Assembly (NCBI GenBank): GCA_002633005.1
Contig: NMRA01001172.1
Coordinates: forward strand, 1-43,079
From: Phoronis australis
Lineage: Eukaryota; Animalia; Phoronida
Reading direction: 5' to 3'
DNA length: 43,079 bases
The position numbers were made by a program, and so were the translations under genes. Each line of letters opens with the position of its first letter. Position 1 is the stretch's first letter. Below are positions 16,084 through 43,079 of the stretch, one piece after another. The notes under the pieces were generated by a model. It was not told the origin of the DNA. It saw only the letters and a program-made list of their open reading frames with translations, and did no database searches.

Positions 16084-16696
16084 TAATTTAATCGCGCGAT
16101 TATGCAATGTAGTCTTGGCTTATTTTCATACTTTGTGGGCGGCACTTCTTCAAGGTACGGTTTCGCGAAAAGTGACTTCAGGCTTAAGTCAGAATGCTGG
16201 TTACTTAAGGATATTTCCAACCTTATTCACAAAAATTGGCCATTTTTGCAAAATTTCACTTGTGTCTAGCAAAATACCTTATCTTCATTCTCGGGGAACT
16301 TCAAATACGAAATATATACTGCGTAGCGAGAAAAAAAGATTTAGCAGAACCACCTTGGAACCGCACAACTGCGTGGATATTTGTTTAGCACCTATCCAAG
16401 GTCAAAGGTTAAAGGGCTTTCAAGTAAATCGAGTCTCCCGCCAGGTACAGAACACCTTCGGTATACCCTCAGTCCTTTCATTCACAAATTGGCCATAACA
16501 TTGAAACAACGAGGTGTGGTTATGATAGAATGGTCCCGGGGAAAACGAATACAAAACGTAGTTTTTATCCTAAGGGAGTTGTGGATCTACATGCATACGA
16601 CCGTTGACGTTGAAAACAAATGCTACGAGTTGCCTCAGGCCTCAGTCTGGTCATGAGCACAGAAAGTTGTGAAAAGAGATAAATCCTCCCCCTTAC

Positions 16697-17139
16697 TCCT
16701 TAATTCAATTATTAAGTTAACATTTCGATGTTTCGATTTCATGTTAACGACTTACTTTAACCACCAATTCAATTTTTGTTATCCATTTCTTACTTTGTTT
16801 GGTATCAGTCTCCCAGCACGTGATGTGTACAGGCTATGAGTTGTGACCTACTTTTCTAAGTAGGTCGTACAAAACGGCAAAAGTTGGCTGCGAAAGATAG
16901 GTCTATTTGAGGTTTTANTCCTTAATTCAATTATTAAGTTAACATTTCGACGTATCGATTTCATGTTAACGACTTACTTTAACCACCAATTAAATTTTTG
17001 TTATCCATTTCTTACTTGGTTTGGTATCAGTGTCCCAGCACGTGCCATGTACAGGCTATGAACTGTGACCTACTTTTCTAAGTAGGTCGTACAAAACGGC
17101 AGAAGTTGGCTGCGAAAGATAGGTCTATTTGAGGTTTTA
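16697..17139 (+). repeat. 221-bp tandem duplicate separated by a single N (probable assembly or haplotype artefact)
   Basis: 16697-16917 vs 16919-17139, about 11 mismatches counted by eye, N at 16918. Confidence 0.85.
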
Positions 17140-19149: not shown

Positions 19150-19477
19150 NNNNNNNNNNNNNNNNNNNNNNNNNNNNNNNNNNNNNNNNNNNNNNNNNNN
19201 NNNNNNNNNNNNNNNNNNNNNNNNNNNNNNNNNNNNNNNNNNNNNNNNNNNNNNNNNNNNNNNNNNNNNNNNNNNNNNNNNNNNNNNNNNNNNNNNNNNN
19301 NNNNNNNNNNNNNNNNNNNNNNNNNNNNNNNNNNNNNNNNNNNNNNNNNNNNNNNNNNNNNNNNNNNNNNNNNNNNNNNNNNNNNNNNNNNNNNNNNNNN
19401 NNNNNNNNNNNNNNNNNNNNNNNNNNNNNNNNNNNNNNNNNNNNNNNNNNNNNNNNNNNNNNNNNNNNNNNNNNNNN
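19150..19477. other. Assembly gap (328 N)
   Basis: Run of N next to a GA-rich tract. Confidence 1.
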
Positions 19478-19788: not shown

Positions 19789-21329
19789 TCTTTTATGCAA
19801 ATTGGGAGCAGCTGTACTGATGAGAAGACCAGTGCAGGTATTCACTTATTTTCAGGGGAGGGGGGGGCTTGACTTCTCTAATTCCCCCTAATGCCGATGT
19901 TATTTTTTGCGTCTGAGGCTGTATAGTTCATCAAAGAAGTCCATATAGTCTTCACGTGCAGTCATTCTACTTCAACAGCAAACTTTCAACAAACGGGTGT
20001 TGAAACATCAGGCAAATCCAACACTCAGGGCTTACAACTACACTAGATTATGTTAAATCTACATTTCCATAGCATTTATACCAAAAAATGAAACAAGTTT
20101 CAACTTCATAAAATTAGTCTCGATATATTTCTTTCCACGATAGGACTCCTTTGGTTTCTGTTACCTACAAGAACATCGAAGCCATAAGTGATGAAAAAGT
20201 CTATTGAGTTGTTCCATAGTCAAACTAGGCATCATCACTGAATGTAACCAATGCTTCTCTAGCAAGTAATTGTCTGCAACTATGTAGCTTAAAGTTGCGG
20301 TTTGTCTTACCCACTGATAAATTCATAAAACTCAGGAATTTAATTATTGCACCACATGCCAAGATTTCAGTTCACACCGAGCAGACTGGGTAATGGGAAT
20401 GATTCAGGCCTTCATCTAGAGGGCAGTGGGTGTCCAATTGGACAAACTGCCCTTGTTCAGTAGTACACTGGACGCCCAGACTCAAATTTAGACACCAGGT
20501 CGAGGACACCCTGTTTTTCACATTTGGATGCCAGTCAAGTAAGTACTTGTGTCTCTCCTTAACTTCATAGTGCTAACAGTACAGGTAACACTTGGAGCTA
20601 ATAGCGTCCTGTCCACTATGAAAAAGTTAGTTCTAAATTAAGACAATGTCTAAGATATAGCGAACTTTATTACAGACCCGTATCTCAACAGATACATACC
20701 ACACTAAAACAGCAACCTGAATTGGGGTCATAAAACGCAGTCATGAGTCAAGGACGCCCTGTGAATTTAATGAATCCAATTTCAGCCTGTTTTTGAAATC
20801 CTGGGTACCCTCCCGAGTTGAGTCCACATGTACGTTGAGGCATATTTTTTAATGCCTGTTGATCTAACATGATATTATTGCTCATTGTTTACTTTAGAAG
20901 TGGGTTTTGAGTATTTTAATGTTAATTCAATTGGAATAACTTTGTGTCAATATGAATGATCTATTTAAAAAACAGTTGAATTGTTTATTTCAAAACTAGT
21001 TTAAAATTTTAATGCTTTTTACAATAACACACTCAGATAGTATTAATTCTAATAAATACGTTTGGGCTCTTAATATTTGAAATAAGTGTAATATTTTAAC
21101 ATAACTAAATTACTTAGCAAAATTAACAAGCATGCATGTATAGCAAAAACTGGTTACACCTGACTATTGTACCTAACTTAAGGACAATCTTCGCCTAATA
21201 TCGAAACGTAGTTTTCACGCACTCTAGCTTTGTGTTTGCTTTCCACTTCTTGTTTATTCTTAACTTGGCCAAAAAATAATATTATTCGGAATGTTGAGCA
21301 CCTTCTCAGTGATTTTCTTGTGTACCTTT

Positions 21330-21589
21330 CGTGCACGCGCCCAGCCTAAACATGGGGTGTGCTTGAATTTTTGAGATTGTGCAGCTTTTATTAAGATTCA
21401 CGGGGTACACTAAGAGCCACAAATTGTGCATTCGCCGAATTCTAGTAGTTTCCGCTTTTTAGTGGACTTTTGTCCCATTTTCTACTTTTTCAGAGTTTTT
21501 GTTTCTGAGGTGGACCTTCTTGCCCACTTCGCCGAATGAGGAGGGGCTCATTTGAGCCCCCAGAGCCTCCCCCTCTGGGTGCGCGCATG
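21330..21589. mobile_element. MITE with CATGCGCGCACCCAG-type TIR; related copies at about 33175-33410 and about 2790-2890 (inverted, partial)
   Basis: TIR 12/15, possible CCTTT TSD; internal sequence shared among the three copies. Confidence 0.7.
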
Positions 21590-21874: not shown

Positions 21875-23255
21875 TATCCTTTCAGTACAAAATTTAAATT
21901 ATGAAAAAATAATGGAGATTCCCTAACGAATGTGAGAATTATGCATGCCTTGAACAAAAAAAGTGGATTTTCCATTTTCCTTTTGTATTCTGGAAGTTGA
22001 ATTTCCCAATTGCATTTTGCATACATGGGTTATTGAACAATTTAGCATTGGAATTTAAGTTTTCCTTCTATTTATCGAAAATTGAATAAACAGAAAAAAC
22101 AGTGGTTGTGTGCATAAGGCATAATTACAGTTTTAATGGAAACAGGAGCATGTATATTAATTGTCCTGATGTTATAATTAGCCAAATGAAAAAACGAACA
22201 TACTTATGTGACGACTAATTTTTGTGAAACACTGAATTCAGCTACTAATATGAAACATTTGTAGATAATAATTTAGAACATATTCACTGGAATGTTTGGA
22301 ACTTGTATCACCTTAAGTAGTGCAGACATAAATTTTGATGGATAAAGATACATATCCAGCAATTAGAAATGTCGATCTGAATAACAAATTGAAGTTCACT
22401 TCCTGGTGAAATTTCATACAGATCAGAGAGATTTTAATCAAGAGCTCAATTAAAACGAAGTATATTTATTTCCATGTTTTAATCAACTGGAAAGCCTAGT
22501 AAAATTTTTAATTTTAAAACAGTTTTGTCACTGAACAAGGACAATTCACTTGGGTGCACCTATGGCTGACAGCAGGAAATGATGGTCGTCCTCACTTCTA
22601 GTTTATTCTACACGTAGGTTGGCAGATTCACAAATTTCAACCTCCCCCACAAAGCAGACACGCTATATGTGGAAAATATGGGTTGTTGGTAGATTTAAAT
22701 GTTGGGTGCTGCATGAAAAGCTATTTAAACATCAAATACAGGGGTCGAACAATGGCAAATTGGTCAAGCACTTCACTGGAGCATATCTGATGACAGTCAA
22801 TAACACCAAGGTCCAGGCCAAGCGTGAGTGCTCTGATTTAGATCGGTGCGAACTTGCCAAAAATAGTGGAACAATTGCTTCTCGTACGCGCGTGAACGCA
22901 CGACACAGCCTTTATAGCACAGAAAATTTATTGTCACTCATGAACTGGGGCTCGGGTTGCAATACAAACGTATAAAATTCTTCCGTTAATATGGGCACCA
23001 TGACGTCATGCAAGCCAATGGGTGAACAAGTCGAAACAGAATTATAAACGCATCTACGACTATTCAACCGTTACTATGACGTAGTTGATGAATAAATATA
23101 TCAATGGATACTTACTTGAACTGAAAATTACGCATAAGAACGTTAGAACAGACAACTGATCCATTTTAAATTCTTCAGTACGGTGACCTAGTTATGGTAT
23201 GTCGCCGCGTCGGTTAATTTAGGTCAATATCCGGGCTTCGTCGCACCTGTGTCAC
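21875..23255 (+). repeat. Dispersed repeat family, 3' part
   Basis: Aligns with about 37730-38365 and about 39230-40327. Confidence 0.85.
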
Positions 23256-23900: not shown

Positions 23901-26900
23901 AACTGCTTCCATTCTAGGGCGTGTGATGCCAGGCCCTCATCCCCGGCCCAGATCAGTCGAGTGCTACGACACGTAGGCTTATGCATGTGTTTAGACCGTG
24001 CTAATTCGATCATGGCAATTGTGAATGCAAGTGACCCAGGTTTACTGTGGCCTTTGTCAGTGATTATTAAGTGTCTATTTTGTGAATATTGACCAACCTT
24101 TGGTTCATTTTGTGATAGCTCACATACGTCTTTGTTTGAGTAGCCCTACTGGATCATTACTGCAGTATTCATCGTCGAATTCATTGTCTGATTTCCGCTC
24201 TGTGATCTGCATAATAGTCGTCCAATTCTCGCTCATGTGGAGAATTTCTCGCTTTCACTGGTGACCGCGCTGATTCCCTAAGCCCCAGACAACTTTACGA
24301 TGCCTATTAAGCACGCCCTTTGTATTGAAGTAGTTCTGAGCTAATGAAGTGGAAAGGTAATCGCTAGCATTACTGTCTTAACAATGGTTGTTGTTAGTAC
24401 CCCCAATCTGGTTTTCTCTGACATTTGCAGAGTTACAGCCTGCAACTCTTTAGAGTAGTTTTAACTTGGTACATTATAAATATTACAAAATGACTAAAAA
24501 GGTTAACTCGTGTTTATCTTCACAAAGGGCCACTTCCCAAGGGAATGATAAGTTTCATATTGGTTTTCTTTATTTAATTTTTAATGCTGAGTCTGCCCAC
24601 TTGTTTTTTTTCTTACTGGGAACGGGTTGATAACTTTTTATCTAAATTTTGAGCTTGAAGTACCAAAACAGTGGTAGATTTTGATCGCCAGCTAAACTTA
24701 ATTAATTAAGTTCATTGTGAGCCCATCCCTAAACTTACCATATTACAGGTACACTAAACATTTTCACGTGTCATTAAAGTTTAATCTTTATTAGAACTCA
24801 AATCATAAAATATATACAAAAGTGCAAATATTGTGATAACCAAACTGAAGATTTGGCATCTCTGGACAATTTTGGTGGCACTGACTATATAACTAGTATG
24901 CTAGCTCTTTGTCAGTAATAAAAAATGAAAAGTGGGCACAACAACTGTTTCCTGATCAAAATCTGCTTAAACGAGATTGAAAGAATATTAAAAAATAAAG
25001 CCACTTGATGTGATATTGTTAACTCTGATCAACATTTGAATATCCACCGAGTATATCAATACGCGCAGTAGTTTATCTTCAATCGTACCCAATGGTTGTA
25101 GTTTTTAGATTATTAGTTCATCGATTTTTAAAAATCAAAAACTGTATTTGGTTGTTTTTTCCAGCTGAATAATACCGTCGTTTATAATGAAAATTAGTGG
25201 TCAATGCATTTTGAAAATTCGCCACTATGTACAGTCAGAGATGGCTAATACAGTTTATGGGTCTTGCTCTCATCGGGCAATGCGGTCATCACAACTGTAC
25301 CTGACTCCGCGCCGCGCTCTCTTTGATCCTGGTACAAGCTGCTCAGAAGGACGAGCGGCGAAAATTCCCGCTTATCTTTAGAAATGCGTGACTTCCTTGT
25401 AAGCGTATTATTCACGGTATGTCAAAATTGTCCTCGCCTTGTGATCTGGTGAGTTCCGCCATAGCAATTGATTGTCAAGTAACCAAACGTCTTGGCGATA
25501 AACTTGGGAATAACTAAAAAAATTTCAAAATGAAAAAAAAGTATTGCGATTATGTGGCACAAAAAGTGCTTATTTGGTTGAATTACGTGGTATTCATTTC
25601 ATATTAGCGAAGTGAAACCTCATAAACCAAGAAAATGCGTGTTGGTAACTTTTTATGACTGCCAGCTTCCTCCAATCGTCTGTACTATATGGCTGCCAAC
25701 TACGCAAACACCACGTGGCGAAGTTGGTACGTATAGACGTGATTGTGCTTGGAATTAGAAGCATATATCTTTGTAGTTAGAAGCACCAGTAGCTGCAACA
25801 ATCTTGTTGTTGTTCGTCTGTATCCTACTGTCTGTAACAGTTAGGCTGGGACTGAGCCTTTTCCGCTTCACCCTTTCTGGTCATTTTCGGACACGGTAGG
25901 TAATTGACATTGTCAAGCTTTACTTATCAATGAACAAAGTTAATTAAAATTACAAAAAAACATTTTTAACATTTTTTACATTCACTAGCAGACACCATAA
26001 ACCAACAGTAAAACTGAACTGATGACCAGGAACAATGTCACGGTTAATATTGTCTATTTTCCAAGTCACTGATATTCACCCTGACGGGTATCTGTAAATC
26101 ATAATTAGTTTCCCGATAATTACTCATACAGTAAGTGAATAATGATAAGCGTGATAAATAAAACCCCACGTGGCAAGAAGGTGTTGATTGCACAGCTGTC
26201 GCAAAAAGCATGCATTTGATGTCTACTTTTTATGAAAGGCAATTGTAATATTTGTACTGAATAGAGAGAAATGAAGAAAAGAGAGTCGTTCAAAGACGTT
26301 CAGAAAATTTTTGGATTGGCCACGAAGCATAAGTTTAATAGTCAGAGCGGCCAAGACCCGTAGATCTGTCCATGGACGGACATCCTGTATGGCTTGGGCA
26401 CAGTGACACCACTTGGATTCTGAACTATACACCATTGCATTACCATGATGGGTGAAAACAAGAACTCCCGGTGAAATGATGTTCTCACAAAACCCGTGAA
26501 TGTTGTTCACGAAAAAGTTATACTGGGAACAGCACAGCGATTTTCGACGAGTTTCGCTACCGCTACTTTGAATGCCAGCAAAGGTAGGTGTAGCAGACGA
26601 ATGTAAACGGTACTGATTCCTGAGAATACGTGCATATCAGCTGGAATGATTGTTGTACAAAATACAAACACAAAACTAGGACTGATGCAGTCTCCACTTA
26701 AAAGTCGTCCATTCAAGTTTGAACAATTTCACGTTAATGCAAAAGTACTAAACGATATAGGTCCAATCCATAACAATCAATGCTAGTGATAGGGGTCGAA
26801 TGTCGGCTTAGCTTCATCTTTGACCTCTGTTTCATTCATTCATTGATTTGTTGTTTCAGTTCCGGGGACCCGTCATGAGTGGTTTGGAGACCGGATATGC

Positions 26901-27179
26901 TGAGTGCGTGCTCAACCAACGCATTATTGACGACTGCTCGTATGTACGTCCATCACTTGGGCTCACTGGATCCAGCATGATTACATTTGATTGGACAACG
27001 AAACAGACGGTTTTATAGGTATATGAGCGGTGACACGAGAGGAAACACTGGACTGTGAAATCAAGCTTACACTGCTCTCACGTCTCGTGAGATTATCCTG
27101 GAGTGGTTTCGTTGCTCGAGAAAAGATGAATACAATTCTCACCTACACGCCACTTGAACGTGCGCCTTGGAGATTAGTG

Positions 27180-27583
27180 CTAGGCATCGAGATTCTCCTG
27201 ACCTGGTTGTCTTCTGTCATGTGTCTCACCAGTGTTGCGATTAATGGTACTACTTCCATCATCATAGTACTGTCCATAGTCCAAAGGTTGATAGTGTGGT
27301 CCATGATCGTCCTGTCTATCTGTTTTCTGATACACAGGCTGGTCCAAGATAGAGTACTCAGCCCGCGCAGTGTCTCCAGGATTCGAAAGCCTCTGGTATA
27401 ATGGCGGCTGTATGGAAGAATACATCCCTTGTTGGCCAGCTTGAGACCTGTCCAGTTGGTGATACCCTGGGTCACGCAGTCGAGTGTAGTCTCCCTGGTT
27501 CGTTCTCTGAAACTCTGCCTCTTCGTAAGGAGCCATGTCAGCTATTTTTTCCATCATACGTTTACTTGGGCCAAGTGGTATAC
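27180..27583 (-). CDS. Last coding exon: SAM helix 5 + Tyr-motif repeat tail
   Basis: ttccag| acceptor, phase 1; GIPLGPSKRMMEKI completes the SAM; then YTRL, YHQL, YSSI, YQRL, YSIL, YQKT, YQPL; TAG stop. Confidence 0.85.
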
Positions 27584-30500
27584 CTGGAATGGACAAAGAT
27601 GTGCATTTTGAATTAAACACGACACATTGAACTGGTAGGAATAATTTTCATGATAAAAATAAATACACAAACACGGTAACGGTTATCAAAGTAGCTGTGG
27701 GTAATCCAACACAAGAGGTAAACGGAACTTATTGCATACTCATTAGCACCAGTTTTCATGTAAAAGGGTGCTTTTTCGAACAAAGGTTCCTACGAAAAAG
27801 GTATCATTTAGTCATGATTTCTTTAAAAAGTGGTTCACTTTAGGAGTTGGTGAAACTCTACACAAAAAATACAACATATCCCTTTTCCAGCTACACACAC
27901 ACGCACGTACGCACGACGCACACAAACACACACAGGTCTGAAACAACTTTTACTTGAAAAACACATATTGTCTTACTTTTACATGGCATCCCCTTTTGTT
28001 TTTTTTTTCACCTACCCCCACTGTCCCTACCTAAAGTCCCTGTGAGATCTTCCAGGGTCAGTTTAGCCAGAATGTTACTTGTGATCAGTTCCCGTTGGAA
28101 TATAGGTACATATCGCTCAAAGCCCAATCTTTCCAGGAATTCTCTCACATCGTCATCTACAGAAAATTTAATGACAATGGCAATATACATCTGTAAACGA
28201 ACAAATGGGAACAAGTGACTGACACCATTCCAATGCCCCTGAAAAACATTTTCTGCTAGATCTGTCTTCTGGGTTCACATTAGCTAGATAATTCATCTGA
28301 AACCCCAAAATTTAAGTAAAAGAAATTATGATATCACGGAATGAATCTTGTTTCCGTGGGATTCCAGATAACATTCTGGGCTCAGCTATTCAGTTACAAA
28401 TAGGGGTAATTAAACACCCGTTCTTCCCAGTCAGAATTAGATTTTTTTTGCTAAGCCGAGTTTACTTACACAGGTTATTTGGAACAGTTGTATAAATAAG
28501 ATCAGGTTTCACTAAGAACTACTTCCACTGACCTTTCACTGCAAAATTCTAATCCACTATGCAGACTAGTTACCCCCTCCAAACCCAAAATGAGAAGGAA
28601 TTTATTGCACTGGATTGAACTGTTATCTTTTAACAAATATTAACAGTTTACTTTGTCACTAATAATTTAGATACTCAACAAATACAAACATGTAGAAAAC
28701 TATCTTATTGGTGACATTATTAGTGTGCACTGTACGATGGTCAGCAAACACCACATAAAAATGACCATTGATGCAATCTTGGCTTAAAAATACAAATTTG
28801 ATAATTAGTTTTGAGCCAAATAACTGAAAAGTTATCATACCCAATGTTTCTTCTGGTTCAAAAGCTCTGTTGGCGACATTTTTAAATCCTTGCCGATCCA
28901 CTAAATGATTGTTCACCAAGAGATCTGGGTTATTATGCTGCAATTAAACAAAAGAGACCTATTGGGTTGAGTTTCAACTAAGGGTGCACATGTCGAGGAT
29001 GAAGAAAATGTGAAGCCTACAAGAGAGAAAGAGTTAACTTAGAGTCTAAAACAATCCAGTGCAAGGGTCCATTGCGTGAAAAAGCGACTTACAACTTAAA
29101 ATAGAAATTTGGTCTTATGCTACCCATAACTATTCCTGAAAAATAATGAAAAACTCACTTTATGAAAAGAACGAAATGTATGACAGTATATCCATAATTG
29201 CTACATGCTGAGAAAATTTGTGCAAATTATTTGCAGGCAATGATGTGCTGATAATTGCAGGTCTAACCCTTTATCCCATACGCGTTGAATCAGTCAAGTG
29301 CAATACGACCATATGATATTGTTTTGCGTATTCCCCTCCCGCACTACTGCAATAGTGTCCTCTGACATGAAAAGTTCAAAATGTAGGTCAATGACGACAC
29401 GACTTCGTTAGCCGGTTCGATCAACAAACTTTCCGAAATTAATTTAAAGTAATAACATTGCAGCAGTATAAGTAACTGTCAACATGCGAACAGGTCCCAA
29501 AGGAAAAATCTGAAACAAAACTGTTAATTATATAGGACACTTCTGTCTCAGTTTTCAATTGCTAAATATTATATTGTCTGCAACTCAGGCGCCGATTTTT
29601 GCGGTATATGCAATAACAAATATTGTTGCTTTTTAACTTTATCAGGAAATGTTACAAGTTCAGTGCACAATTACGACTGTTTTCATTTTTGTTGTCTCTT
29701 TCAAGTCATAAATCGTTACATTCAAAACTGTTTCTTTTACGAGACAAAAATTGGAAACTAACGCGCAACTACATACATATAGGTTACGATCCGCCACGTG
29801 AACAGTCTGGGTGAAGTATTTAAAAATTTGTCGCAAAAATGAAGGAACCTTTGGAATTCGAAGCGTGTGATTGGAATACATACAAAACGTACGTCGATCG
29901 GCGTAGATGCAGTAATATCTCACTCGGCATTATTCCGCGGTATATAACTTCATATTACTTCATCTACGCCACTCTAGGTGTGTTTGTGTTTTTATTCGAT
30001 AACTGTAAAGTGAATTGGAAGGATATGAACAAATTGCTGCCTCAAGTCTTACGTCACTTTTCATGGGATAGTAAATAGAATCAACTGACACATTTTACCC
30101 AACTTTCGTGTTTTTAAAAGACATTTTGAAATAGTTGGAATACGAAAAACACCCAAAGATTCACAGGAAAACCATTAGACTATCAGGGATTAATACATCC
30201 AATATATCATATTCATAGAACAAAGCGCCTACGTTTTATTAAGATTCTCAGTGAGCACGGTATGTTAGTCAGAACTGTTCTCATTTAAAGTGGCAATTAA
30301 GTCCCCTTTCATTCCAACCAATTAATTTAGACCTCTTGCTGTTATGTGACAGGTCTCAAAATATTCCTTCGTCAAAATAGAGGTGATTTCTGGGTTGGAA
30401 AAAACTGGTGGTTTGCTATTACAGAACAATCTCTAGAAGTTGACCTTCCATGGCGTGTCACTTTATTTGCCAAGCAATGTCTCGCGAAATAATGAACGGT

Positions 30501-33500
30501 CTATATTTTTGAAAGATCAAAAATCATTTCTCTTCTGAGTAAGGAAAAATCAATGCCAATTTTATATCCGTAAGTGGTCTAAATCAGAAGTTCATTTCTT
30601 CTGTAGCTTGACCGCTGCTTGCACCCTACTACCAATACATTTCCCCTATGCAACTTGCCACTTTTCACTTGAAACCAATCTCCAGCATACCCGCCAGCTT
30701 TGGCCTACTCAGGTGTTTTATCAAACATTCCAGTGACCCTTCCACACATCAATTTAGGCCAAGACTTGAATCGTGTGCAACCCTCACTAAAACTCCGGTC
30801 TGGGCCTATGAAGCCATTGGAACACACCGAACGTTTTCGCGAAATTTGTTCTTGTTGTAAATCATTCACAAAGCAAAGAAAGCATCATAAGTTCAATTAA
30901 AGAGAAGAAAGTAAATTTTCAGCATGGAAGTGAAATGGAAGATCCCTTGCACTGAATTACGATTTACGGGAAAAAATAAACGATTCTCCAGCACTGGCCC
31001 TTCCAAAGAGCTTTGTGGTGGTTTGAGTTAGCGTAAAACTTTAAACAATTTTGTCTTCAAACTCTGGAAAGGGTTTTAATGAAGAATTCAGTTTTTATGA
31101 CATGCGGCATCAAAAACAGCCTGCGCTGCATGTAATTTTGGCAGTGCTATCACTGGCATCTATCCCTTTTCCATTATCCCGCAAGACATGGGAATACCAT
31201 TTGCAAACCGAGGATTGCAATTTGTCAAGGCAACAACTCGTGTCAAAGAAAAGAAGTTTGTCAGAAATTCCATCTACGTGCTTTGGTACCTGGTTATTCA
31301 AATCCTAACAAGTTAGAAGCATTCCATTTTGCCTACTGCAAAATGAGATGCGCTGCCTAATGGTGCTCACATTTCCATTGGAGGAGCCAACGTCGTCTGC
31401 CCGAGCTTTGTAGTGTACCGTTGAAGCACTGTTCTTGTTTCCCGATCCAGCATACGCTGATCCACGGTTGCTACGGAACAAATAGGAAATGAAGCAACAC
31501 TGGCGTTTACAAAAATGAGGCATCATGAATCAGTCCTAAAATGGAAAAACAATATAATCTTTACATTCTTTTAACGGGATCATATTAGCTACCCACAAGA
31601 ACAATTATATTGGATTGTTTGAAACAAAATCATGTTCATTTTTATCTTACAGAACAAAAATGCATAATTTAAGGTTACGTAGGACCTTTTCCACTTGTTT
31701 GTGTATTTATGCAAATTTACAAAACTATAGATTTTAACTCATTATCAGTTAGAATGATATAACGTATCAACAAGAAAAATTTCATTGTATTGCTTAAAAC
31801 ATAATTGTTTTCATTCTTCTCTCCTAAAGCAACAATGCATTGTACAAGGTTATGTAATAAGTCCTCATCGACATGTCTGGAGTGTGCATTTTAACCAAAT
31901 TAAGTATAAAAAGCCTGTAGACTTTGATTTTTGACTTAATACCAAGAATTTAATGTTGAATGGGTCTTGTGACCATATTTTCGGTAAAATTTACTAAAAA
32001 GGTAAACCCATAGCATGATAAAATTTCGTTGAGAAGAAAAGTTCAAAATGAAATATAAAAAACATTGTTTCAGTTTCTGAACTTATCATTTCTTTCGCTT
32101 TTTTGCAATTTTTGATTTTTTTTCACATAAATCAAATGTCCTATTTCTTACCATTGGAAGATCTAGCATATTCTGAAGGGACCCAATTTCTGAGGCAAAC
32201 TGTTTGTGCCAACCCTAAAAACAGCATCCATCTTTGGTCACTCTCAACTTAGGGACTGACCTGTGAATTTTACTAAATGTACCTTGAGGCAAGTACATTT
32301 CAGATGTTGATGAATGATAATCAACTTACCTCGTAAATGTGGGACACGGGCGACGTTTGATGACACACACAACAATCACCACTGCCAAAACTAATAAAAA
32401 ACTGCCAACGGAGACACCAACAATCAGTCCATCGGATTGACCTGACTCATTGCCACCTGAAAATAATAAAGTACTTTGTAATTCACCACATACCACATCT
32501 GACAGGGCTGCTATTGCGATGCCACAGCTGCTTCTGAAATTCGCTTCAGTTGTAGTTGCAGATTCATTGAACTGTTCAGCAACTGTGTGGAATGCACTGT
32601 GACAGCCAATACAAACGCAAATCACGCCCTCTGGTTCCCGGTCTTGCCAAACATGGCCGTAAATCTCCTGTGTGAGAGTTTTCTGGTAAATCGGCCAAGA
32701 CAGAAAAAGACGGCCTGTTTCAAGACAACCTGGGTGAAAACGACGACTAAACGAAGGTTTCTGGTTAACAAATTTTATTGAAATCTACAATCCGTTGCTT
32801 TGGTTCGACATATTCAGACATAACTTGAAATTAGAGACTATTGCCGTCAATTTCTACCATAAATATCACAATGATGATTGGCAAATACTGGCAACCATGT
32901 TTTTGGGGGAACACCTACCTGTTCTGTGATGTCCGGATGACCAATATGCAATCCCCCGCATATGGCATGTGTCGAGAAATATTGCATCCAGCGCTAACAG
33001 CCTCGGATATGGAGTCCTAGTATTTGAAATAAAAATTCAAGGACCCAAAGTTCAAAGGATTTGCCATACCTGTAATGCTAGTTGTCGACTCGGAAGTTGA
33101 ATCGGCATTCTCTAAGTGTATTCAACAGGGCAGCCAATTTGAAATAGAAAATACACAAAATTCTAGGACTGATTCATGTGCGCACCCAGCCTAAAAACGA
33201 GGGCTCGAATTTTTGAGAATGTGGACCTTTTACTGAAAAAGAAAAAATGGGGTATGTTCAGAGCTATGAATTGTATATTCGCCGAATTTAGGTAGGTCCT
33301 ACCTTTTTAGTGGACTTTTTCTCGTTTCTACTTTTTCGGATTTTTTGTTTCTCTGAGGCGGACCTGCTTGCCCACTTCGCCAAATGAGGGCTCTTTCGAG
33401 CCACCCGGGTCATCAATGCCATTGAACATGCAAACATGTAAAGTGAAGCGCAAACGTTCTCAAATTGTTCCGTCAGCCAGTCACGTGCACAGCATTTGTT

Positions 33501-36500
33501 ACTTGGGCTGTGAGCCAGACCGGGAGTTATGCTGAGAGTGACAGGATTGGTGAATAGTTGTGAATTCGTAATTGTTCGTTTATTCTTCCATTGCCATTGT
33601 TTTAATGTTGTTTTTTGCATTTTTGTGCATTTTTGTTGTTATGGGAATTTCAAACTGAATGAGCATGGGGAGTTATAAAATTTGAAAAGGACTCAAAAAT
33701 TGAAAAGGACTCAAAATTTGGCTGTCCTCTGAGTCCCAAGTACTCGATGAAAAACAATTCTAGCGCCAAAGCTGAATCGTACAATGTGTGTCTGTATGCC
33801 AGTATTATAAAGCTCACTACCTTAAGATTTTTGGCAAAAAGTCGCACGACTAACAGGTTACGCTATAACAAAGTTACAAGAAATATTTTTTGTCAAATAC
33901 ATAACATTAAGAAGTTGTCAGGAATAGACATCAGCTCACCTTTAAAACTGAAAGCCTGTGTAGCACTTGAAATGATTTTTTTCGACATGGACTGTCTTGA
34001 TACATCGCAGCGAAACACTGCCCCAGTGTCCTTTTCGTTAGCAACAAATGTGTGATTGAACACAATTCTGCCCACTTTGCTTCCATCTGTTTTAGTTTCA
34101 ATTATCTGGAATTGCTCTTGAGGTTGTCCCTGTATATCCCATACAACTCCATTTTTTCGTTTCCATGACAACATTCCGGGAGGTGAGCCCACATTGCCAG
34201 TGCACGTCATGACTATAGTATCGCCATCAGTCAGGTGTGTCTTAGCAGGTTCAAAGGTGACAGTAGGGACTTCTGGCTCAACTGAAAGTTAATGTGGAAA
34301 GAACTACGAAAACATCAGCAGAAAATGACATCAACATATCATTAGCATAAATATGTGATTCTTAAAGAACCCCGTATTTAGATCATTCATTCTTTTACAA
34401 GTAGGCAGTAACATGCCACTAGATAACACCAAGAAAACAACTATTTTCACTTCAGAAACGTTCTTACAGCATTACATCATTCATCAACAATTCACCACCC
34501 TTTTGAACGACATGTTTTATATCCTGTGATAATGTTATCACAAAACCTTAGTTTTGAATTAGATTTTTACAGTCATGAACTCCTTTTCAACTTGCTCCTT
34601 GGCAAAAACAAGTGTAATTCCCGGGATTTAAAGGAAATGGGTATTTCATTTATTTGCTGGACCTTAAAATCGTTTAAATTTACATCACAGTAAGGAGTAA
34701 GTTGAGTGTGGTCAAAATAAAAGTTTTTTTTCTACGGCACACTGTTTTATTGCCACTACAAAGATCTCACTTACTATTAATTTCTACGTCTACTTCATCT
34801 GAATGTGAACTACTAACACCCGAAGCCTCCAGTTCAATCTCACACTTGTACTTTCCTTTGTCAGCAGTGGCCACATTCATAATCACTAGACCAGCGTTGC
34901 CATCTGGTCCGCCTGTATCATCCTTAGCGTTGCCAAGGAAGGCACCCTTCTTGGATACACCCGGTTTATCTCCTGTATACACTTGATACCACATAACCTC
35001 CTGCTTAGTACCACCTGAAACCCAACTCTGTTTAAAGATCTTCACGTCATCCTTGAACCATTCTATAAGTTGCACTGCCCCGCCTGAGATCAAAGTATAC
35101 TGACACAACAAGGTCAGGTTAGATCCTATCTTCGCATACACAGGTGAATTATTTACAATATTCACGTTGTTCTCTTGGCTGGAGACGAGCAAGCCTGGAA
35201 GTACAAGTAAAAGTTGCTCTAACTAACATAAAACAGTGTGTTATTTAATGGGCAGATATATCCAAACTAAGCAAATTTTCTCAAAACATAATTTCTAGAT
35301 AGCTGCCACACCTTACAGTTTACGGTATATCATAGGCCTGCTGAACCCAAAGAAGCTGTTAGAACAACTAATCCGCTCACCTTTCACTTTGAAAGTCCGT
35401 GTAGCACTGGAAATGATTTCTTGCGACATTGACTGTCTTGATGCATCGCAGCGAAACACTGCCCCATCGTCGTTGTTGCTTGTAAAAAATGTGTGATTGA
35501 ACACAATTCTGCCAACTTGACTGCCATCTGTTTTATTTTCGATTATCTTGAATTGCTCTTGAGGTTTTCCTTGTATGTCCCACGTGACTCTAGATTTTCG
35601 TTTCCATGACAACATTCCGGGAGGTGACCCCAAATTGCCAGTGCACGTCATGACTATAGTGTCACCATCAACCAAGTCTGTCTTATCAGGTTCAAAGGTG
35701 ACAGTAGGGTCTTCTGGCACAACTGAAAGTTGAAGTGGAAAAACTCCCAAAACATCAATACAAAACGACAGTAACCCATCATTAACAGGAACAAGTGATT
35801 TCCAAAGAACATAGATGTTAGATCATTCATTCTTTACAACTAGGCAATAACATGCCACCTGATTACACCTAGAAAACAACAGTTGCATATTAACAACGTT
35901 CTTACAGCATTACGTTTCTCATCAACAATTTACGACCCTTTTGAACAAGACATTTTATATCCCGGGATAATATAACTGTATAAATAAGTGATAACCTCAA
36001 TTTCCGTCACAAAAACAACTTTTGAATTCGATCACTTGCTGTCATGAAATCGTTCTCAAGTTGCTCCTAATGGTCAAAATAGGTATCATATCTGGTCTTC
36101 AAACAACTGTCAGTATTTTTGCTGGACCATAAAATCGCTAAATTCACATTACAGTACGCTGTAAGTTGAGCGCGGTCTCAGTCAAAAAATATTTTTTATA
36201 GAACGCGGGTTTATAAAGCCGCTACAAAGCTCTCACTTACTATTAATTTCTACGACCACATCATCAGAAGGTGAATAGGAAGTGCCCGAAGCCTCCAGTT
36301 CAATCTCACACTTGTACTTTCCCTTGTCATCATTGTCCATATTCATAATCACCATAGTGGCATTACCATCTGGTCTGCCTGGCCCATTCTTAGCGTTGCC
36401 GAGGAACGCACCCTTCGCGGATACACCCGGTCCCCCTGTTGCATATCTATTATACCACCTTATTTTTTGTTGAGTTGCACTTGAATACCAACTCTGTTTA

Positions 36501-39500
36501 AAGAACTTCACGCCATCCTTGTACCATTCTATAACTGTAACCTCCCCGCCTGACATCAAAGTATACTGACACAACAAGGTCAGGTTAGATCCTATCTTCG
36601 CATACACAGGTGAATTATTTACAATATTCACGTTGTTCTCTTGGCTGGAGACGAGCAAGCCTGGAAGTACAAGTAACAGTTGCTCTAACTAACATAAAAC
36701 AGCGTGTTATTTAATGGGCAGAGATATCCAAACTAAGCAAATTTTCTCAAAACTCATTCTAATTTCTGCATAACTGCCACACCTTGATATCTTTTTAGTG
36801 ACATTCCAAGTGAAATTTTGGAAAGTTCTTCAAAAAATTACCTATCATTTTTAATAGGGTAAATGACAAGTTATATATCGTATCAATACAGACATATTAA
36901 GATAATGGTCTCAGTGGGACTGTGCTTATATGCGAAACTTAGGTGCATGCGCTAATATTTGAATCACTTGAGTAAAAAGGCTGCGAAAAAGGCATTAATT
37001 TGGATATAGGGCCTTGGGTTCAAATGCGCGGCAAATTGTAAGGCAAAACTTATTTACCAGTTTCTTGAAAATAGACCAAGGAAATCCAACTATACAGAGG
37101 TATTTTGGTTCCAAAGTATTTTTCGAAATTAGCTTTTTCTCTTGAAATTTGGTGTATCAAGGCACTCAAATGTCTGAAGTTTTGGCACATAACATGTTTT
37201 TCAGCAGTTTCTGAATAAAAAAATGAAAAAATTGTGTTCTAGACGAAATTTTTCAATTCGACTTTTATCAAAATTATCTTTATTTCAGTTTGAAGTTGAT
37301 TTTGAAACAGTTATGATCATACTTGGACTAAGCTGAAATTTGGAAGAACCAATTATTTTCATTAGTTTTCTCATAATTTACAAACCAAATGGCACTTCTC
37401 CGTCTGCTACGTTTTGGGTATGAAAAATTGGGTTTAGAAAAAATGCAAGATACTCTGTAATAAGATGGAAAAAAATCAACAAAATTTGAAAATTATTGAA
37501 TTATAATTGTTTGGATAAAATTATCCCAAAAAGACATGTCGCGAACGGAAAATTCTGTTACAGGTGGATTTTCTGCAAGTGCATTTATGCGCTTATCTTC
37601 TTTAAAACGGTATTTTTCTTTTTCCAACTTATGTTTGACTGCAAACTGATCATACTAAATGTTAATCAATGAACAAGATTCATGGATAGTTTGAACAGTG
37701 AAATTCGGTATAAATACAACATTTCTGTAACATTTTCAGTACAAAATTTTAAGTATTAAAAATAATTTAGGCTTCCTAAATAATGCCTTGAACAAACACT
37801 GGATTTTCCATTTTCGTTTTGCATATTGGAAGTGAGATATTGAACAAAAGTTGAATTTTCCATTTGCATTTTGCAAACGGATTATTGAACAAACGTTGGA
37901 TTTAAAATTCTTTTTTATTTATTGAAAATTGAATTAACAGAGCAAACGGTGGTTGTGTTTTCAAGGTACAATTACATTTTGATGGAAACAGGAGCATGCG
38001 CCCTATTTATTCTCCTGATGTTCATCCAAATGAAAAAAACAACTTACTTATGTGATGACTAATTTTTGTGGAAACACAGAATTTAGCTAAGAAACATTTG
38101 TAGGTAATAACTTAGAAAATATGCATAGGAATGTTTGGAGTTTGTATCGCTTAAAGTAGTGCAAGGTGTGAACAAGTCGAAACTGAATTTTAAACGCATC
38201 TATATACGATTATTCAACAGTTGCAATGGCGTGGTTAATGAATGAATATATCAATGGATACTTACTTGGACTGAAAATTACGCATAAGAATGTTAGAACA
38301 GACAACGGATCCATTTTAAATTCTCCAGTACGGTGACCTAGTTATGGTATGTCACCGCGTCGGTTGTGTTGTGAAAGTGCAACCCCGATTTAACCGGCGA
38401 GCGTGCTAACCATTCAGCTAATAGCCCGTTAGCGAGTGGCTAACAGAGGATAATGTAAGGTGCGACTACAGGCACGATCTTTAAGAGTGTGTAACCAGCA
38501 CGAACTTGGTTGCATCTCCAAATTTACATTGCGTGCGATACTGGAAGGAGGAGGGCCAGATACTATACCGGTGCCTACCCTCTGACGTCACCAACAGAAA
38601 CAGAAACAGAAACGAATCCGCTACTAGAATAAAATTTGAAACGTTTGCTCGAGTCAATGGCGACTTCCAATGTTCTTGCAGCATGTTTATTGGCATATCA
38701 CGGTTCAGAATATTTAAAAAGACAAGCACTGTTTATTCTGCTAATTCAATTTTCGATAAATAAAAGGAGAATTTTAAATCTAGCGTTTATTCTTTAACCC
38801 GCAAATTGAAAATTCAACTTATATTCAATATCACACTTTTAATATGCAAAACGAAAATGGAAATACAGTGTTTGTTCAAGGCATTACTTATTAAATCTCC
38901 CTTATTTTTCATATTTCAAATTTTGTAATGAAAATGTTACAGTCATGTTGCATTTATACCAAAACAGTATGATTTACATTTAGTGTGCCCAGTTTGCAGT
39001 CAAATATGAGCTGGAAAAAGAAAAGACTTTTTTAAAGGAAGATTAAGCGCATAAATGCTGTTACAGAAATTCCATCTTTGACTGAATTTTCCATTCGCAA
39101 CATGTTTTTTTATTCATTTCATCCAAACAATATAATTCAATAATGCTACGTGCTTTAGGCTGGCGGTGTATGACTGTTGTATGTGCATCAAACAGCCGTG
39201 TACTCACTGCATTCATACAGTGGAATCTTAAGGTACAGTTACATTTTTAATGGAAACAGGAGCATGCGTTTATATTTCCTGATATTCATCCAAGTGAAAA
39301 TAGCAACTGAACAATTTTTGTGGTAACACTGAATTCAGCTAAGAAACATTTGTAGATAATCATTTAGAAAATTTTTACGGGACTGTTCGGAGCTTGTATT
39401 GCTTAAAATAGAGCAGATATGAAGTTTGCAGTACACCGATACATATCTACCACAAAGTGTCTGAATAATAAACTGAAGTTCATTTGCTGGTTGCCAATAA

Positions 39501-42500
39501 GTGATTTTTTCATGAACCCAATTACAACCAGGAAAATTTATTTCCAGCTTTCAGCCAACTGCAAAGCCCATTAAACGTTAAAATTTTAAGACACTTTTGT
39601 CACTGAAAAAGGACAATTGACTAGGGTATACCTATGGCCGTTATCAGGAAATGAGTCACGGTCGTTCTGTGCTCATGTAGGTTGGAAGATTCACACATCT
39701 CAACCTCCGCCATGTAGCAGAAAATTTAAGTTTTTGGTAGATTTCAAATGATGGGTGTGGCATGAAAAGCAAACTAGTAGACATTTGAACATCAAATACC
39801 GGAGTCGAACAATGGCAAATTGGTCAAGCACTGACTAAATTGGAGCATATCTGATGTCAGTCAATAACACAAGGTATGCCAAGCCGAAGCGCTAGTGATC
39901 TAAATTAGATCACCACAAACTTGCCAAATATAGTGAAACAAATGCTTCTCTTAAGCGCGTGAACGTACGACACAGAACTTATAACACAAAAAATGAAAAT
40001 TCAATGTCACTCAGGAACAGAGGCTGGGGTTGTGACACAGACGTAAAGAATTCTTCCGTTAATATGGACACCATGACGTCATCCAAGGTGTGAACAAATC
40101 GAAACAGGATTTTAAACGCATTTGTGAATATTCAACCGTAGCTATGGCGTCGTTGAGGAATAAATATATCAATCGATACTTACTTGAACAGAAAATTACG
40201 CATAAAAACGTTAGAACAGACAAATGATCCATGTTAAATTCTCCAGCAAGTTGACCTAATCATGGTATGTCGCCGCGTCGGTTGATTTAAGCCATGGTCA
40301 ATGCCTGAGCTTTATCGCACCTGTATCATCAACATCTGTGTGTTTTTGTTTGTTTCTTTTTACCGCGGCATTGATTGAACGCTTTGTGTGCATAACGTAT
40401 TGTCTGTCCCGTTAGGAAAACGGTTACACTGAAACTGAAATTCATGAAATCTTCATGTGTAACTTGACTACTTTCGCCGCAGTAGTCAGTGACGGATTTA
40501 TATGGGAGTATGAACCTAAGGGACACCGCGCCGACTGAGACAGGGCTAAAACCTGAATGTCCCGCGCCCGGCCACTTCAGGGAGGAAGCTCATAATCTGT
40601 CGGGATCCGTGAAATTTAAAAAGGCGGCTGTCACGGGGAACCACTCAATCCGTTCTTGGGTCTGTGGCCGAATGAGCCGGGAGCTCCGGATCCTGTGCCA
40701 ATGCGTGCAGAAAAAGCAACGCTTTCGAATCCGCTACTAGAATAAAATTTGAAACGTTTGTTTGATTCAGTGGTGGCTTCCAATGTTCTTGCTGCATGGT
40801 TACTAGCATATCACATTCAGAATATTAAAAGACACCTGTATGAAAGCAGTAGCTACACGGCTGTCTGTTACACATACAGCAGTCACAGAACGCCAGCCTA
40901 AAGCACTTAGCATAGGTGAACGAGGTACGAACATCTGACCAGCTGGAGAACTCAGAGTGTATCTCCGTACGTACAGAAATGGGTGCCGTGCCGGTGTCTG
41001 CATTCTGGGTTTGATCCCTAGGTACATGTGCCTTACAGACGAAATAAAAGTTAGCTAGATTTGACATTCGAAATACCGCGGCGACCAAAACGAACAGTCG
41101 TACGCAATTGCATTAACACCAAATGACCCATGACAGGCAAATTGCGGCCTGCAAAGAGTCCCCAAGATATCCAAAACCGACCTCCAAAAATGTGCCAGCT
41201 CAAAAATTGGAACATTCGAGGTACCAAAAAACAATTACATATGCTTCAACACAGGCGACGGACAATTCAAATTACGGTGGCCCAAAGCTGACGTACATAA
41301 ATCGCTTTTCACCGAAGAGAAGAAGTTTTCTCCTCGGAAAAAACTTCTTTCCAATGAAAAACCTTTCCATCGCGGAGAACCTTCTCCGCGGAAAAAGGTC
41401 TCTGTGGAAAAGAAAACATTTCTCCGTGGAAAAAAATTCTTCTCTGCGAAAATCTTTCAGCTGCGGAGAAAATTTTTCTCAGCGTATAGAATTTTTTTTT
41501 CCTCGCTAGAAAAGTTTTCTCCGTGGAGAAAAGTGATTTTTTCGTACTGTTATTTTTTTCAAATCAGCTTTGGGTCTCCGTATAAATTGTCTGTGACAGA
41601 CAAGGTACACTCTCGGCTGTGCCTGCCAGTAGTTTAAAGGATCTAATTTTTTTCGGACTTGTCGAATCCGTTTGACTCCTGAGCATGTAACATAGTGGGC
41701 TACAAGTTTGTTTAGTATTTTTTTACGGCCAGGTGGAGCAATGCGCAGTCAATCTTAACATTGGACATCAACCTTTTCTGACATAAATAATAGGAAAGCT
41801 GAATTGGAACCATCTCTCAAATAGCTGACACACAAGAACTTAGTTCCTGAAAACGTCAGCCACGACAGAGATTGGCCTTTTGATTTAATATTGTGAAAAT
41901 ATTATTTAAAGTTATTATCTTAGCTGTTTGTCAATCCCAGAATTGAGATCAACATTTTCTCAACATGCTAAATCACATATCGCTAAAATTTTCCTTTGAA
42001 TCACTATTTTAAATTTCAATTGTATTAGAATCTAAATCCAATGCTAATTATTCACGACAAAAGTAAGCGAAAAAAGCAATTTTAGTGGGTCAATGATTTA
42101 CTACGCTCTTGTAAGGCAAAACTTATTTACCAAGGAAATCCAACAATACGGAGGTATTTTGCCCTCCAAAGTATTTTTCAAAATTAGCTTTTGCTCTTGA
42201 AATTTCTTCTTCCAGTTATGTTTAATGTTCCTAGCCTATGATAGATGGCGCTAGTGTTAAGGTCTTGCTACACCATCATGTAATAAACATTGTCTGACTA
42301 GCATCAAACAAATGTATACAGGCTGTAATGTAATGTCATCAATACTGTTAAGCAAACATTGCAATCAGGAGAACTGGAAAAATACACATCAACCAGTTTT
42401 GGAGTAACACATCTGCAAATTTTTATAACAAAGAATCCTTCACGCAGTTCGGAGGACAGAATGCGATATTTCAAAAATGGACTTGAAAATGTTAATAAAA

Positions 42501-42956
42501 GTGGCCATTAGGTGGTGCAGAATCGGTGGATTTTATCCTCAACTAATGAATAGAAACATGCTTGCCGGATTTTGTGAAGATCCGTCACATATGCATAAGT
42601 GGGAGTATAGAAATGGCCACAAGGGGGTGCAGCAGAAGACCGAGTGGTGGGGAAACTGGTATTCTGTCTTATCATCTAAGGAATACAACATGCCGAGAAA
42701 GAAATGACGGTAATGGTCCAACCACACATATATGTGACGCATAAAAATGAACAATTAACCATGTTTTGCAGCACATCCTTCTTGCAATAAACTGGTGGCA
42801 CTCCTATGATATGAAAAATCTCCAACCCTTGATGCACCTTGCACTTACCTTCAGCTATAGTCACTTTGACATCCCGCCTCCCTTCGTGTTTCGTTCCGTT
42901 TATATAATTCGTAGCCACACAAGTGTATGTGCCCGAATCTGTTGGTTTTGCTTTGT
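27180..42956 (-). CDS. Ig-superfamily type I transmembrane receptor with cytoplasmic SAM domain and multi-YxxL/I tail, 5'-partial; exons 42956-42849, 36660-36241, 35722-35381, 35194-34775, 34281-33940, 33111-33070, 32456-32330, 31470-31371, 28190(or 28156)-28031, 27583-27180
   Basis: All exons are bounded by AG/GT and join in frame (about 820 aa). Ig domains have the canonical Cys, Trp and DxGxYxC pattern. One hydrophobic TM is followed by KRR. The SAM motif VREFLERLGFERYVPIFQRELITSNILAKLTLEDL..LG|IPLGPSKRMMEKI is followed by a Tyr-rich tail. The 31371-to-SAM junction and the membership of the 42.9-kb exon are the least certain parts. Confidence 0.8.
28031..28190 (-). CDS. SAM domain exon (helices 1-4)
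   Basis: V.EFL..LG...Y...F....I....L..LT.EDL..LG pattern; donor G|gtaggg. Acceptor is either tttacag| at 28190 (phase 0) or tctgtag| at 28156 (phase 1, which would need another exon). Confidence 0.8.
31371..31470 (-). CDS. Juxtamembrane cytoplasmic exon (NRGSAYAGSGNKNSASTVHYKARADDVGSSNGN)
   Basis: Pyrimidine-rich acceptor ...ttccgtag|, |gtgagc donor, 100 nt, phase 2-0, matches the TM exon phase. Confidence 0.7.
32330..32456 (-). CDS. Transmembrane exon (GLIVGVSVGSFLLVLAVVIVVCVIKRRPCP)
   Basis: About 23-aa hydrophobic stretch + basic stop-transfer; ttttcag| and |gtaagt, phase 1-2. Confidence 0.9.
33070..33111 (-). CDS. Short Ser/Thr-rich stalk exon (ENADSTSESTTSIT)
   Basis: cttag| acceptor, |gtatgg donor, 42 nt, phase 1-1, mucin-like composition just before the TM. 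Confidence 0.65.
33940..34281 (-). CDS. Ig C2-type domain exon, copy 2
   Basis: Paralogue of 35381-35722, 342 nt, phase 1-1, open frame. Confidence 0.92.
34775..35194 (-). CDS. Ig V-type domain exon, copy 2
   Basis: Paralogue of 36241-36660, 420 nt, phase 1-1, open frame. Confidence 0.92.
35381..35722 (-). CDS. Ig C2-type (CD80/Beat-like) domain exon, copy 1
   Basis: PEDPTV..GDTIVMTCTGNLGSPPGMLSW..DDGAVFRC; 342 nt, phase 1-1. Confidence 0.92.
36241..36660 (-). CDS. Ig V-type domain exon, copy 1
   Basis: LTLLCQY..IEWYKDG..DKGKYKCEI; 420 nt, phase 1-1, ttccag| and |gtaagt. Confidence 0.92.
37148..40327. repeat. Cluster of the dispersed repeat family: direct copies at about 37148-38365 and 39230-40327, inverted copy at about 38727-39143
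   Basis: Shared blocks such as ggaaacaggagcatg, gatacttacttg.actgaaaattacgcataa and atggtatgtc.ccgcgtcggtt; 38727-39143 is the reverse complement of about 37492-37951. Confidence 0.85.
38366..38427 (-). mobile_element. Possible tRNA-derived SINE head fragment
   Basis: TAGCTGAATGGTTAGCACGCTCGCC (A box/D arm); B box degenerate; sits at the break point of the dispersed repeat. Confidence 0.4.
41273..41582. mobile_element. MITE with TACGG...CCGTA termini (IS3EU-like) and internal palindromic repeats
   Basis: TIR TACGG(TGG/AGA)CCCAAAGCTGA; interior is an array of TTTTCTCC-NN-GGAGAAAA-like units; TSD degenerate. Confidence 0.7.
42849..42956 (-). CDS. Ig-domain C-terminal half exon (KAKPTDSGTYTCVATNYING...VKVTIAE)
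   Basis: DSGTYTC motif; ttttgcag| acceptor, |gtaagt donor, 108 nt, phase 1-1. Confidence 0.85.
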
Positions 42957-43079
42957 CTGCAAAAAAACAACACATATGCGATGATTTTTATTACAGTACT
43001 CCCCAACATAAATCAGAGTACAACTTTTTAAGACATTTTAGAAAAATTACCAACCAAAGAAAAACCGTAAAGCAACGCA

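Follow-up and report, generated by a model that had tools for sequence, protein, structure and literature searches.

Does the genome of the phoronid Phoronis australis encode an immunoglobulin (Ig) receptor that carries, within its own cytoplasmic part, both a SAM domain and an array of tyrosine docking motifs? The question is raised by contig NMRA01001172.1 (assembly GCA_002633005.1), analyzed here over its whole length of 43,079 nucleotides (nt), hereafter the window. A first-pass annotation, made from the letters alone, had proposed one receptor gene between 27180 and 42956, with an ectodomain of successive Ig domains, a stalk, a single transmembrane (TM) segment, a SAM domain and a tyrosine-rich tail resembling immunoreceptor tyrosine-based activation motifs (ITAM). 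We find that this layout is real, expressed and apparently undescribed, novelty being understood as not found rather than proven. The locus encodes an expressed single-pass Ig receptor with a SAM domain and six YxxL/I motifs that, with a probability of roughly 0.55, signals as an activating immunoreceptor with a built-in adaptor.

The membrane-to-tail chain is transcribed

All receptor exons (27180-42956) lie on the minus strand, show AG/GT ends and share one open frame. Transcription was followed by aligning RNA data of the same species label, namely three raw runs and a set of contigs, to 26000-43079 and 31300-33160. Approximately 18-19% of each raw run was sampled, and counts given as a/b/c are reads per joint in runs 1, 2 and 3. 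Fifteen of the 25 splice joints over 26000-43079 are listed. In most aligned reads likeness to the window is 90-95% (1534 of 2103, 1328 of 1782 and 2263 of 2797, repeats contributing to these numbers), which indicates other individuals as their source, with alleles or paralogues included.

The stalk exon (33070..33111) is Ser/Thr-rich and has 14 codons (42 nt), AG/GT ends and an open frame. It is joined to the TM exon (32330..32456) by 2+2 reads only. The latter encodes a hydrophobic segment with a 19-residue hydropathy peak of 3.1, a basic stop-transfer sequence and a juxtamembrane Cys. Two cytoplasmic linker exons (31371..31470 and 28841..28937), each with RNA joints at both sides, lead to the SAM exon (28031..28156) and to the coding part of the terminal exon (27180..27583), which closes with a TAG stop at 27182-27180. 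The supporting reads number 26/12/48 from TM to linker 1 (counted at 85% likeness or more), 5/7/2 from linker 1 (31371) to linker 2 (28937), 4/8/28 from linker 2 (28841) to SAM and 35/25/75 from SAM to tail, all on the strand of the gene. An extra 21/22/50 reads exit linker 1 into linker-2-like sequence, and one contig of 1677 nt contains the TM exon, linker 1 and 1276 nt beyond. These pairwise joints place TM, SAM and tail in one transcript type, and the SAM and tail exons therefore do not belong to a separate transcript. No single long read spans the link, which is pieced together from pairwise junctions in reads of other individuals, alleles or paralogues among them.

The cytoplasmic part is 251 amino acids (AA) long: 75 before the SAM domain, 59 for the SAM as delimited here and 117 after it. 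On the read-supported chain the 75 AA between TM and SAM leave no room for a kinase, in keeping with the absence of a catalytic domain reported initially.

Two acceptors 15 nt apart were observed at the TM exon: a diverged RNA form enters at 32456, while 32441, likely a second acceptor, appears to be the entry point for four reads of the close form. A different stalk, absent from the window, leads into the TM exon in a further 7 and 20 reads and in one contig.

SAM domain and tyrosine tail

The SAM exon encodes helices 1-4 and reaches 33.5 bits with the Pfam SAM_2 profile (curated cut-off 20.5) and 29 bits with SAM_1. The helix 5 motif opens the terminal exon, and a five-helix SAM profile is thus present across the joint; the initial SAM call holds. 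Structural matches in the PDB are weak (SAM domains of TIR-1/SARM1 and tankyrase, E 0.02-0.06), and the nearest solved SAMs, to which the likeness is weak, are oligomer-forming ones. The mid-region is acidic and the start of helix 5 basic, a charge layout found in SAMs that assemble head-to-tail. All listed reads of the SAM exon depart from the window at two positions, which they have in common.

Behind helix 5, the terminal exon is built of 22-residue repeats and contains 11 Tyr. Six YxxL/I motifs are in register with the repeat, at spacings of 4 and 10. This is a clear excess over shuffled sequences, which have a mean of 0.94 motifs and reached six once in 20,000 shuffles. The loose ITAM pattern YxxL/I-x(6-12)-YxxL/I, whose spacing is defined in the available text of PMC9052152, has two matches in the tail. 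No pair fits the strict form YxxL/I-x(6-9)-YxxL/I used for the Alr proteins of Hydractinia. The term ITAM-like initially applied to the tail is therefore justified by the loose spacing and not by the canonical one. The terminal exon has no match to the inhibitory motif (ITIM) [SIVL]xYxx[ILV] or to the switch motif (ITSM) TxYxx[VI], and the tail no YxN, YDxV/P, YxxM or YxxQ motif. An Atlas match of the tail to an unnamed eukaryote cluster (0.85, recognition low) is a lead only.

A decayed U-box behind the stop codon

Approximately 180 nt past the stop, in the transcribed 3' untranslated region (UTR), positions 26836..27003 of the minus strand contain a decayed U-box, an E3 ubiquitin ligase domain (Pfam U-box 22.6 bits, cut-off 21.4). 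Its stop-free core matches solved U-boxes in the PDB with E-values of 8e-5 to 2e-3 for seven of the nine sequences listed, and an Atlas U-box cluster at 0.92. U-box domains have consensus start and end motifs, the latter usually with a Trp. The start motif, which occurs once in the six frames of the window, precedes the core by 25 nt, in a different frame; the end motif is in the frame of the start motif and not in that of the core, with a stop in place of the Trp. The different frames of core and flanking motifs, together with this stop, show that the domain is decayed. RNA covers it at 11-15x on the strand of the gene. The assembled contig over it has five gap letters and, in the third RNA run, the main transcript aligns at 90% to the UTR beyond the U-box and not to the U-box itself, which indicates that other copies differ at this place. 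Neither the U-box nor the three leader exons described below were part of the first-pass annotation. RNA reads and a contig on the same strand (26009-26518) extend the 3' region to approximately 26000, and position 26339 may mark a polyA signal.

The U-box probably once ended the receptor protein. The cytoplasmic part would then descend from a SAM...U-box module whose ligase decayed here, leaving a non-catalytic receptor. The alternative, which we consider somewhat less probable, is that the U-box never belonged to the receptor and was captured by the 3' UTR as a passenger, whether a fragment of some other gene or a retrocopy. Between it and the tail frame lie several stops and no fewer than four frame changes, no former in-frame fusion being demonstrated, and no intact fused relative was found in protein searches or in a metagenome scan, as a passenger would predict. 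However, it lies on the same strand and in the same exon as the tail, at the short distance from the stop given above, and no other remnant of a donor gene was seen around it in three frames. Moreover, the order SAM then U-box has precedents: WDSUB1 and, in sponges and a choanoflagellate, SAM+U-box proteins described in the available text of a survey of animal U-box genes (PMC3087547).

A bolder extension is unlikely but can be formulated: an undescribed variable Ig receptor family with the order V-C2-(I)-TM-SAM-phosphotyrosine repeats-U-box, of which the window copy is a degenerate member. Some paralogues or alleles would keep an in-frame U-box and ubiquitinate proteins docked on the tail, while ligase-less copies would be their partners in the same SAM polymer, forming a paired-receptor switch.

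Leaders and ectodomain

The extracellular part is encoded by duplicated exons, all ending in phase 1. Two leader exons are in use. Leader Lb (38266..38314), a signal peptide with a hydrophobic core, is the main first coding exon; leader La (40184..40232), with ATG and 16 signal-peptide codons, is an alternative one, and 43 of their 49 nt are identical. La is joined to a V exon by 2/5/7 reads; Lb joints are placed on V1 (14/12/25 reads) or on V2 (5/1/9 reads), a placement that is ambiguous because the first 106 nt are common to both V exons. Together, the leader to V joints total 21/18/41 reads. The V1 exon (36241..36660, phase 1-1) comprises the end of the signal peptide and a V-set Ig domain (Pfam V-set 32.5 bits, cut-off 26). 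It is followed by the C1 exon (35381..35722), a CD80-like C2-set Ig domain (C2-set_2 25.2 bits, cut-off 21). The V2 exon (34775..35194; V-set 31.7 bits), which also opens with a signal-peptide end, and the C2 exon (33940..34281; C2-set_2 23.2 bits) are tandem duplicates of V1 and C1, respectively. The two pairs are 80% identical over 1451 nt (V 74% and C 78% at the AA level). The best PDB match of the C2 exon is CD276 (E 1.3e-6, residues 4-45 only). No sushi domain was matched on any exon scanned, and no further exon candidate was found between the C2 exon and the stalk. The initial V and C2 domain calls are thus confirmed, all four scores exceeding the cut-offs. Each Ig domain has two Cys (the B-F cysteine pair) and, together with the signal peptide and a single TM, these are the sequence features expected of a type I membrane protein of the Ig superfamily.

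The assembly of these domains differs from that proposed initially, an Ig fragment followed by V-C2-V-C2. The fragment (42849..42956, minus strand) covers only the F-G strands of an I-set-like Ig, its second half (Pfam I-set E 8e-4, which does not reach the cut-off), and two leaders that splice directly to a V exon lie between it and V1. In an assembled contig a C2-like exon end is followed by 189 nt and then by this exon, with 4 differences in 109, an order by which it completes a third Ig, located after V-C2 in a different unit. The remaining exons of that unit lie upstream, outside the window, and no stalk or TM exon for it was found between 42848 and La. The earlier model therefore spanned at least two duplicated units. 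RNA depth over the exon is at most 37-48x compared with 32-90x for the SAM exon. Nearby, a possible phase-1 terminal exon of approximately 45 Cys-containing residues and a stop (42670-42540, minus strand) would give a secreted form of the upstream unit; no joint to it is among those listed. Same-strand RNA depth is also present at 41960-42529 in two runs.

The mature chain would be signal peptide-V-C2-(third Ig in some units)-stalk-TM-75 AA linker-SAM-117 AA tail, with approximately 568 AA for a two-Ig form. A four-Ig chain V1-C1-V2-C2 in the window copy, lacking the leading fragment, is an unlikely alternative to it. All four exons can be read in one open frame, ten of the 25 joints lie outside those listed, and human B7-H3/CD276, which has a four-Ig form owing to duplication of its V-C pair, is a precedent. 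However, a C1 to V2 joint is absent among the 15 of 25 joints listed, and V2 opens with the end of a signal peptide. The V to C joints listed (8/10/14 and 1/1/13 reads) combine a V2-like end with a C1-like start, which identifies them as two-Ig units of another copy. Reads placed between leader and V2 were rejected as proof of V1-C1 skipping in view of their ambiguous placement. Some reads switch from V1-like to V2-like over 33 unlike letters and were attributed to further copies.

Cluster organization and variation

A third leader, Lc (23116..23164, minus strand), lies behind the 3' end of the receptor. It is 46/49 nt identical both to La and to Lb, and its intron matches theirs. No V exon was found behind it, where a gap of 328 N (19150-19477) lies downstream. 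Lc is thus an orphan leader at the start of a further, broken unit downstream; its position reveals duplication of the whole gene. The gap has GA-rich flanks and could hide Lc exons, and a 222-nt tandem duplication (94%) is present at 16693-17139. The sequence of the La intron passes into an inverted copy of the intron behind Lb (38714-39144 compared with 37492-37964, 76%), a sign that La, still spliced to V, lost its own V-C exons by rearrangement.

The most economical reading is unequal crossing-over within a tandem cluster, with the unit leader-V-C2-(I)-stalk-TM-SAM-tail. The window receptor would be one member of a birth-and-death cluster, as judged from three leaders, two V-C pairs, a stray third-Ig exon and the TM variants, of which the RNA runs contain at least three. 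The identical first 106 nt of V1 and V2, compared with a synonymous divergence (dS) of approximately 0.24 in the remainder, suggest gene conversion. Residue-changing differences in reads amount to 13/21 in TM, 8/10 in linker 1, 1/2 in SAM and 0/3 in the tail, among the differences listed and with different likeness cut-offs; they are indicative of a receptor variable outside and steady inside. The ratio of nonsynonymous to synonymous rates (dN/dS) is 0.73 for V1/V2 (0.70 for the middle strands) and 0.56 for C1/C2, one pair each, corresponding to relaxed constraint at most.

Could the locus be instead a single gene with variable ectodomain cassettes, in which leaders and V-C(-I) units are spliced alternatively to a constant TM-SAM-tail? 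Clustered protocadherins join variable cassettes to a constant region in this way. The window indeed contains one copy of TM, linkers, SAM and tail compared with two V-C pairs, one third-Ig exon and two used leaders. The shared phase-1 ends of the ectodomain exons would allow such splicing, the 42956 exon is well covered by RNA although neither a stalk nor a TM exon separates it from La, and the listed SAM-exon reads all share their two differences. This explanation is nevertheless improbable: reads joining a leader to V2 and to V1 cannot be distinguished over the identical stretch, the other stalk and the diverged TM of the main RNA form are absent from the window, which points to separate genes or alleles, and the orphan Lc testifies to duplication of whole genes.

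Comparison with known receptors and adaptors

Word-indexed protein searches with the tail, with V2 and with the SAM exon, the last restricted to longer proteins, gave 56, 226 and 12 candidates, none significant, which is weak evidence. A HMMER search with a V1/V2 profile against 1.84 billion representatives gave 149 hits, none with E<=1e-30 and nearly all generic sums over multiple Ig domains. The ten named among them are Ig proteins of fish, turtle and sea urchin, and none of the 149 matches the SAM exon, the tail or the U-box piece (best 4.6 bits). No relatives appeared in metagenome scans. No description of an Ig-TM-SAM-tyrosine tail layout was found in the literature searched (supplements and most subscription papers lie outside it). 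Like the first-pass annotation, which recognized no named family, we found neither a family name nor a paper for this layout. It is an apparently undescribed combination among invertebrate Ig receptors with tyrosine motifs, closest in spirit to the fester co-receptors (FcoR) of Botryllus and to Alr of Hydractinia and a member of neither.

According to the available text of a review, FcoR of Botryllus has a signal peptide, V-type and C2-type Ig domains, a TM and a long tail with YxxI/L/V motifs, and belongs to a birth-and-death cluster with variable gene content (PMC12065747). Some FcoR tails carry an SH2 domain, and an E3 ligase gene stands beside each FcoR-fester pair. Compared by description, FcoR has the order V-sushi-C2-C2, whereas the window receptor lacks sushi and ITIM and has a SAM instead of SH2. 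The paired fester gene has no counterpart in the window, where the neighbor is SLC22-like. The Alr family of Hydractinia, in the text available (PMC9546547), is a tandem cluster of single-pass Ig proteins comprising genes and pseudogenes, with alternative splicing and some tails with tyrosine motifs. Alr proteins combine V-set, I-set and Fn3-like domains, whereas the window receptor, again compared by description, has V and CD80-like C2 domains, a 14-AA stalk and no Fn3 exon found. ITAM spacing is 6-9 in Alr (PMC9546547); it is 4 and 10 here, with a SAM in addition. The word SAM has no occurrence in the main text of either article. In both animals, variable clusters of tyrosine-motif Ig receptors are described in the text available as allorecognition candidates (PMC9546547, PMC12065747).

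The cytoplasmic part recalls other proteins. Eph receptors are single-pass proteins with a cytoplasmic SAM; unlike them the window receptor has no kinase, ephrin-binding or Fn3 domain, and its SAM stands 75 AA from the membrane with 117 AA behind it. The V and CD80-like C2 unit and its tandem duplication are shared with B7-H3/CD276, while B7 proteins have short tails without SAM. SLP-76 is cytosolic and combines an SH2 domain with a SAM at its N-terminus. It resembles the window receptor in having a SAM beside tyrosine docking sites, and according to the available text its SAM self-associates and is needed for microclusters, a precedent for SAM-driven assembly during immunoreceptor signaling (PMC3795252). 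In the window, however, the SAM-tyrosine module is attached to an Ig receptor. WDSUB1 and the SAM+U-box proteins have in front of the SAM either WD40 or nothing, as described in the available text (PMC3087547), whereas in the window the U-box is decayed and is separated from the SAM by tyrosine repeats; no WD40 was matched on the window pieces scanned.

Neighboring genes and repeats

A multi-exon SLC22-like gene (organic cation/anion transporter) occupies approximately 6900-16080 on the plus strand, tail-to-tail with the receptor cluster; one of its exons matches OCTN2 (E 1.8e-11). A THAP domain at 1987-2223 (plus strand; Pfam E 1.1e-7), with broken open reading frames (ORFs) to approximately 4250, is likely a decayed DNA transposon, and a short ORF at 2058-2486 on the minus strand has no Pfam match. 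A high-copy repeat is present at 33173-33405 and 21328-21561 (76% alike), with RNA reads on both strands and many loose ends; similar small repeats occur at approximately 29440-29790 and 31740-31945. The observed/expected CpG ratio of the window is 0.84.

Proposed function and implications

The receptor-adaptor hybrid proposed by the first-pass annotation stands for its layout (Ig, one TM, SAM, many tyrosine motifs and no catalytic domain), which is real and expressed, and falls for the ectodomain assembly; the tyrosine motifs are not canonical ITAMs. In the model we favor, that of an activating receptor, the V domain is predicted to bind a cell-surface or microbial ligand. Binding would cluster receptor chains through the SAM, by analogy with SLP-76. 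Src-family kinases would phosphorylate the tail repeats into an array of docking sites, on which tandem-SH2 kinases of the Syk/Shark type may dock, either on the 10-spaced pairs or across neighboring chains. Since there is no ITIM, the output would be activating. The ancestral U-box would have supplied a shut-off, a function that Cbl provides for vertebrate receptors. Syk is described as binding phosphotyrosine pairs of varied spacing and dimerized single motifs in the available text of PMC9052152.

Several observations weigh against this model. Most TM-bearing reads belong to a form that differs at 22 of 128 nt and has the other stalk, which is absent from the window, and a C to stalk joint is absent among the 15 of 25 joints listed; the ectodomain-to-TM link of the exact window copy rests on splice phases and the four stalk to TM reads. 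The Trp usual at the N-terminus of SAM domains is absent from the translation, and many SAMs do not polymerize. The tail lacks a strictly spaced ITAM pair, and the frame changes noted above weaken a former U-box fusion. Finally, positive selection on V is not supported, dN/dS being below 1.

An adhesion or guidance receptor with no immune role, with a nectin/JAM/B7-like V-C2 ectodomain, tyrosines recruiting cytoskeletal adaptors and a SAM pairing one-to-one like that of Eph, would agree with these dN/dS values, with the best, weak ectodomain matches (CD276, sidekick, JAM, CEACAM, P0) and with a low Atlas lead to a poxvirus A36-like tail (0.77), but has little probability since, unlike conserved adhesion families, no relative appears in protein searches, since orphan leaders, duplicated cassettes and several TM variants fit a fast-turnover family, and since the tail is devoid of the YxN, YDxV/P, YxxM and YxxQ motifs.

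The turnover of the cluster makes it a candidate recognition repertoire, and the protein collections searched contain no members of its family. If an in-frame U-box existed in the past, or still exists in other copies, one chain would combine a single-pass Ig receptor and a U-box ligase. Such a protein is not listed in the available text of the 2010 survey, which counts seven animal U-box genes and where the words transmembrane and immunoglobulin have no occurrence (PMC3087547). LAT and SLP-76 are lacking or not found in some invertebrate lineages, as stated for ascidians in the available text of PMC12065747. A receptor with its own SAM beside a tyrosine array would be one way for invertebrate tyrosine-motif receptors to build signaling clusters.

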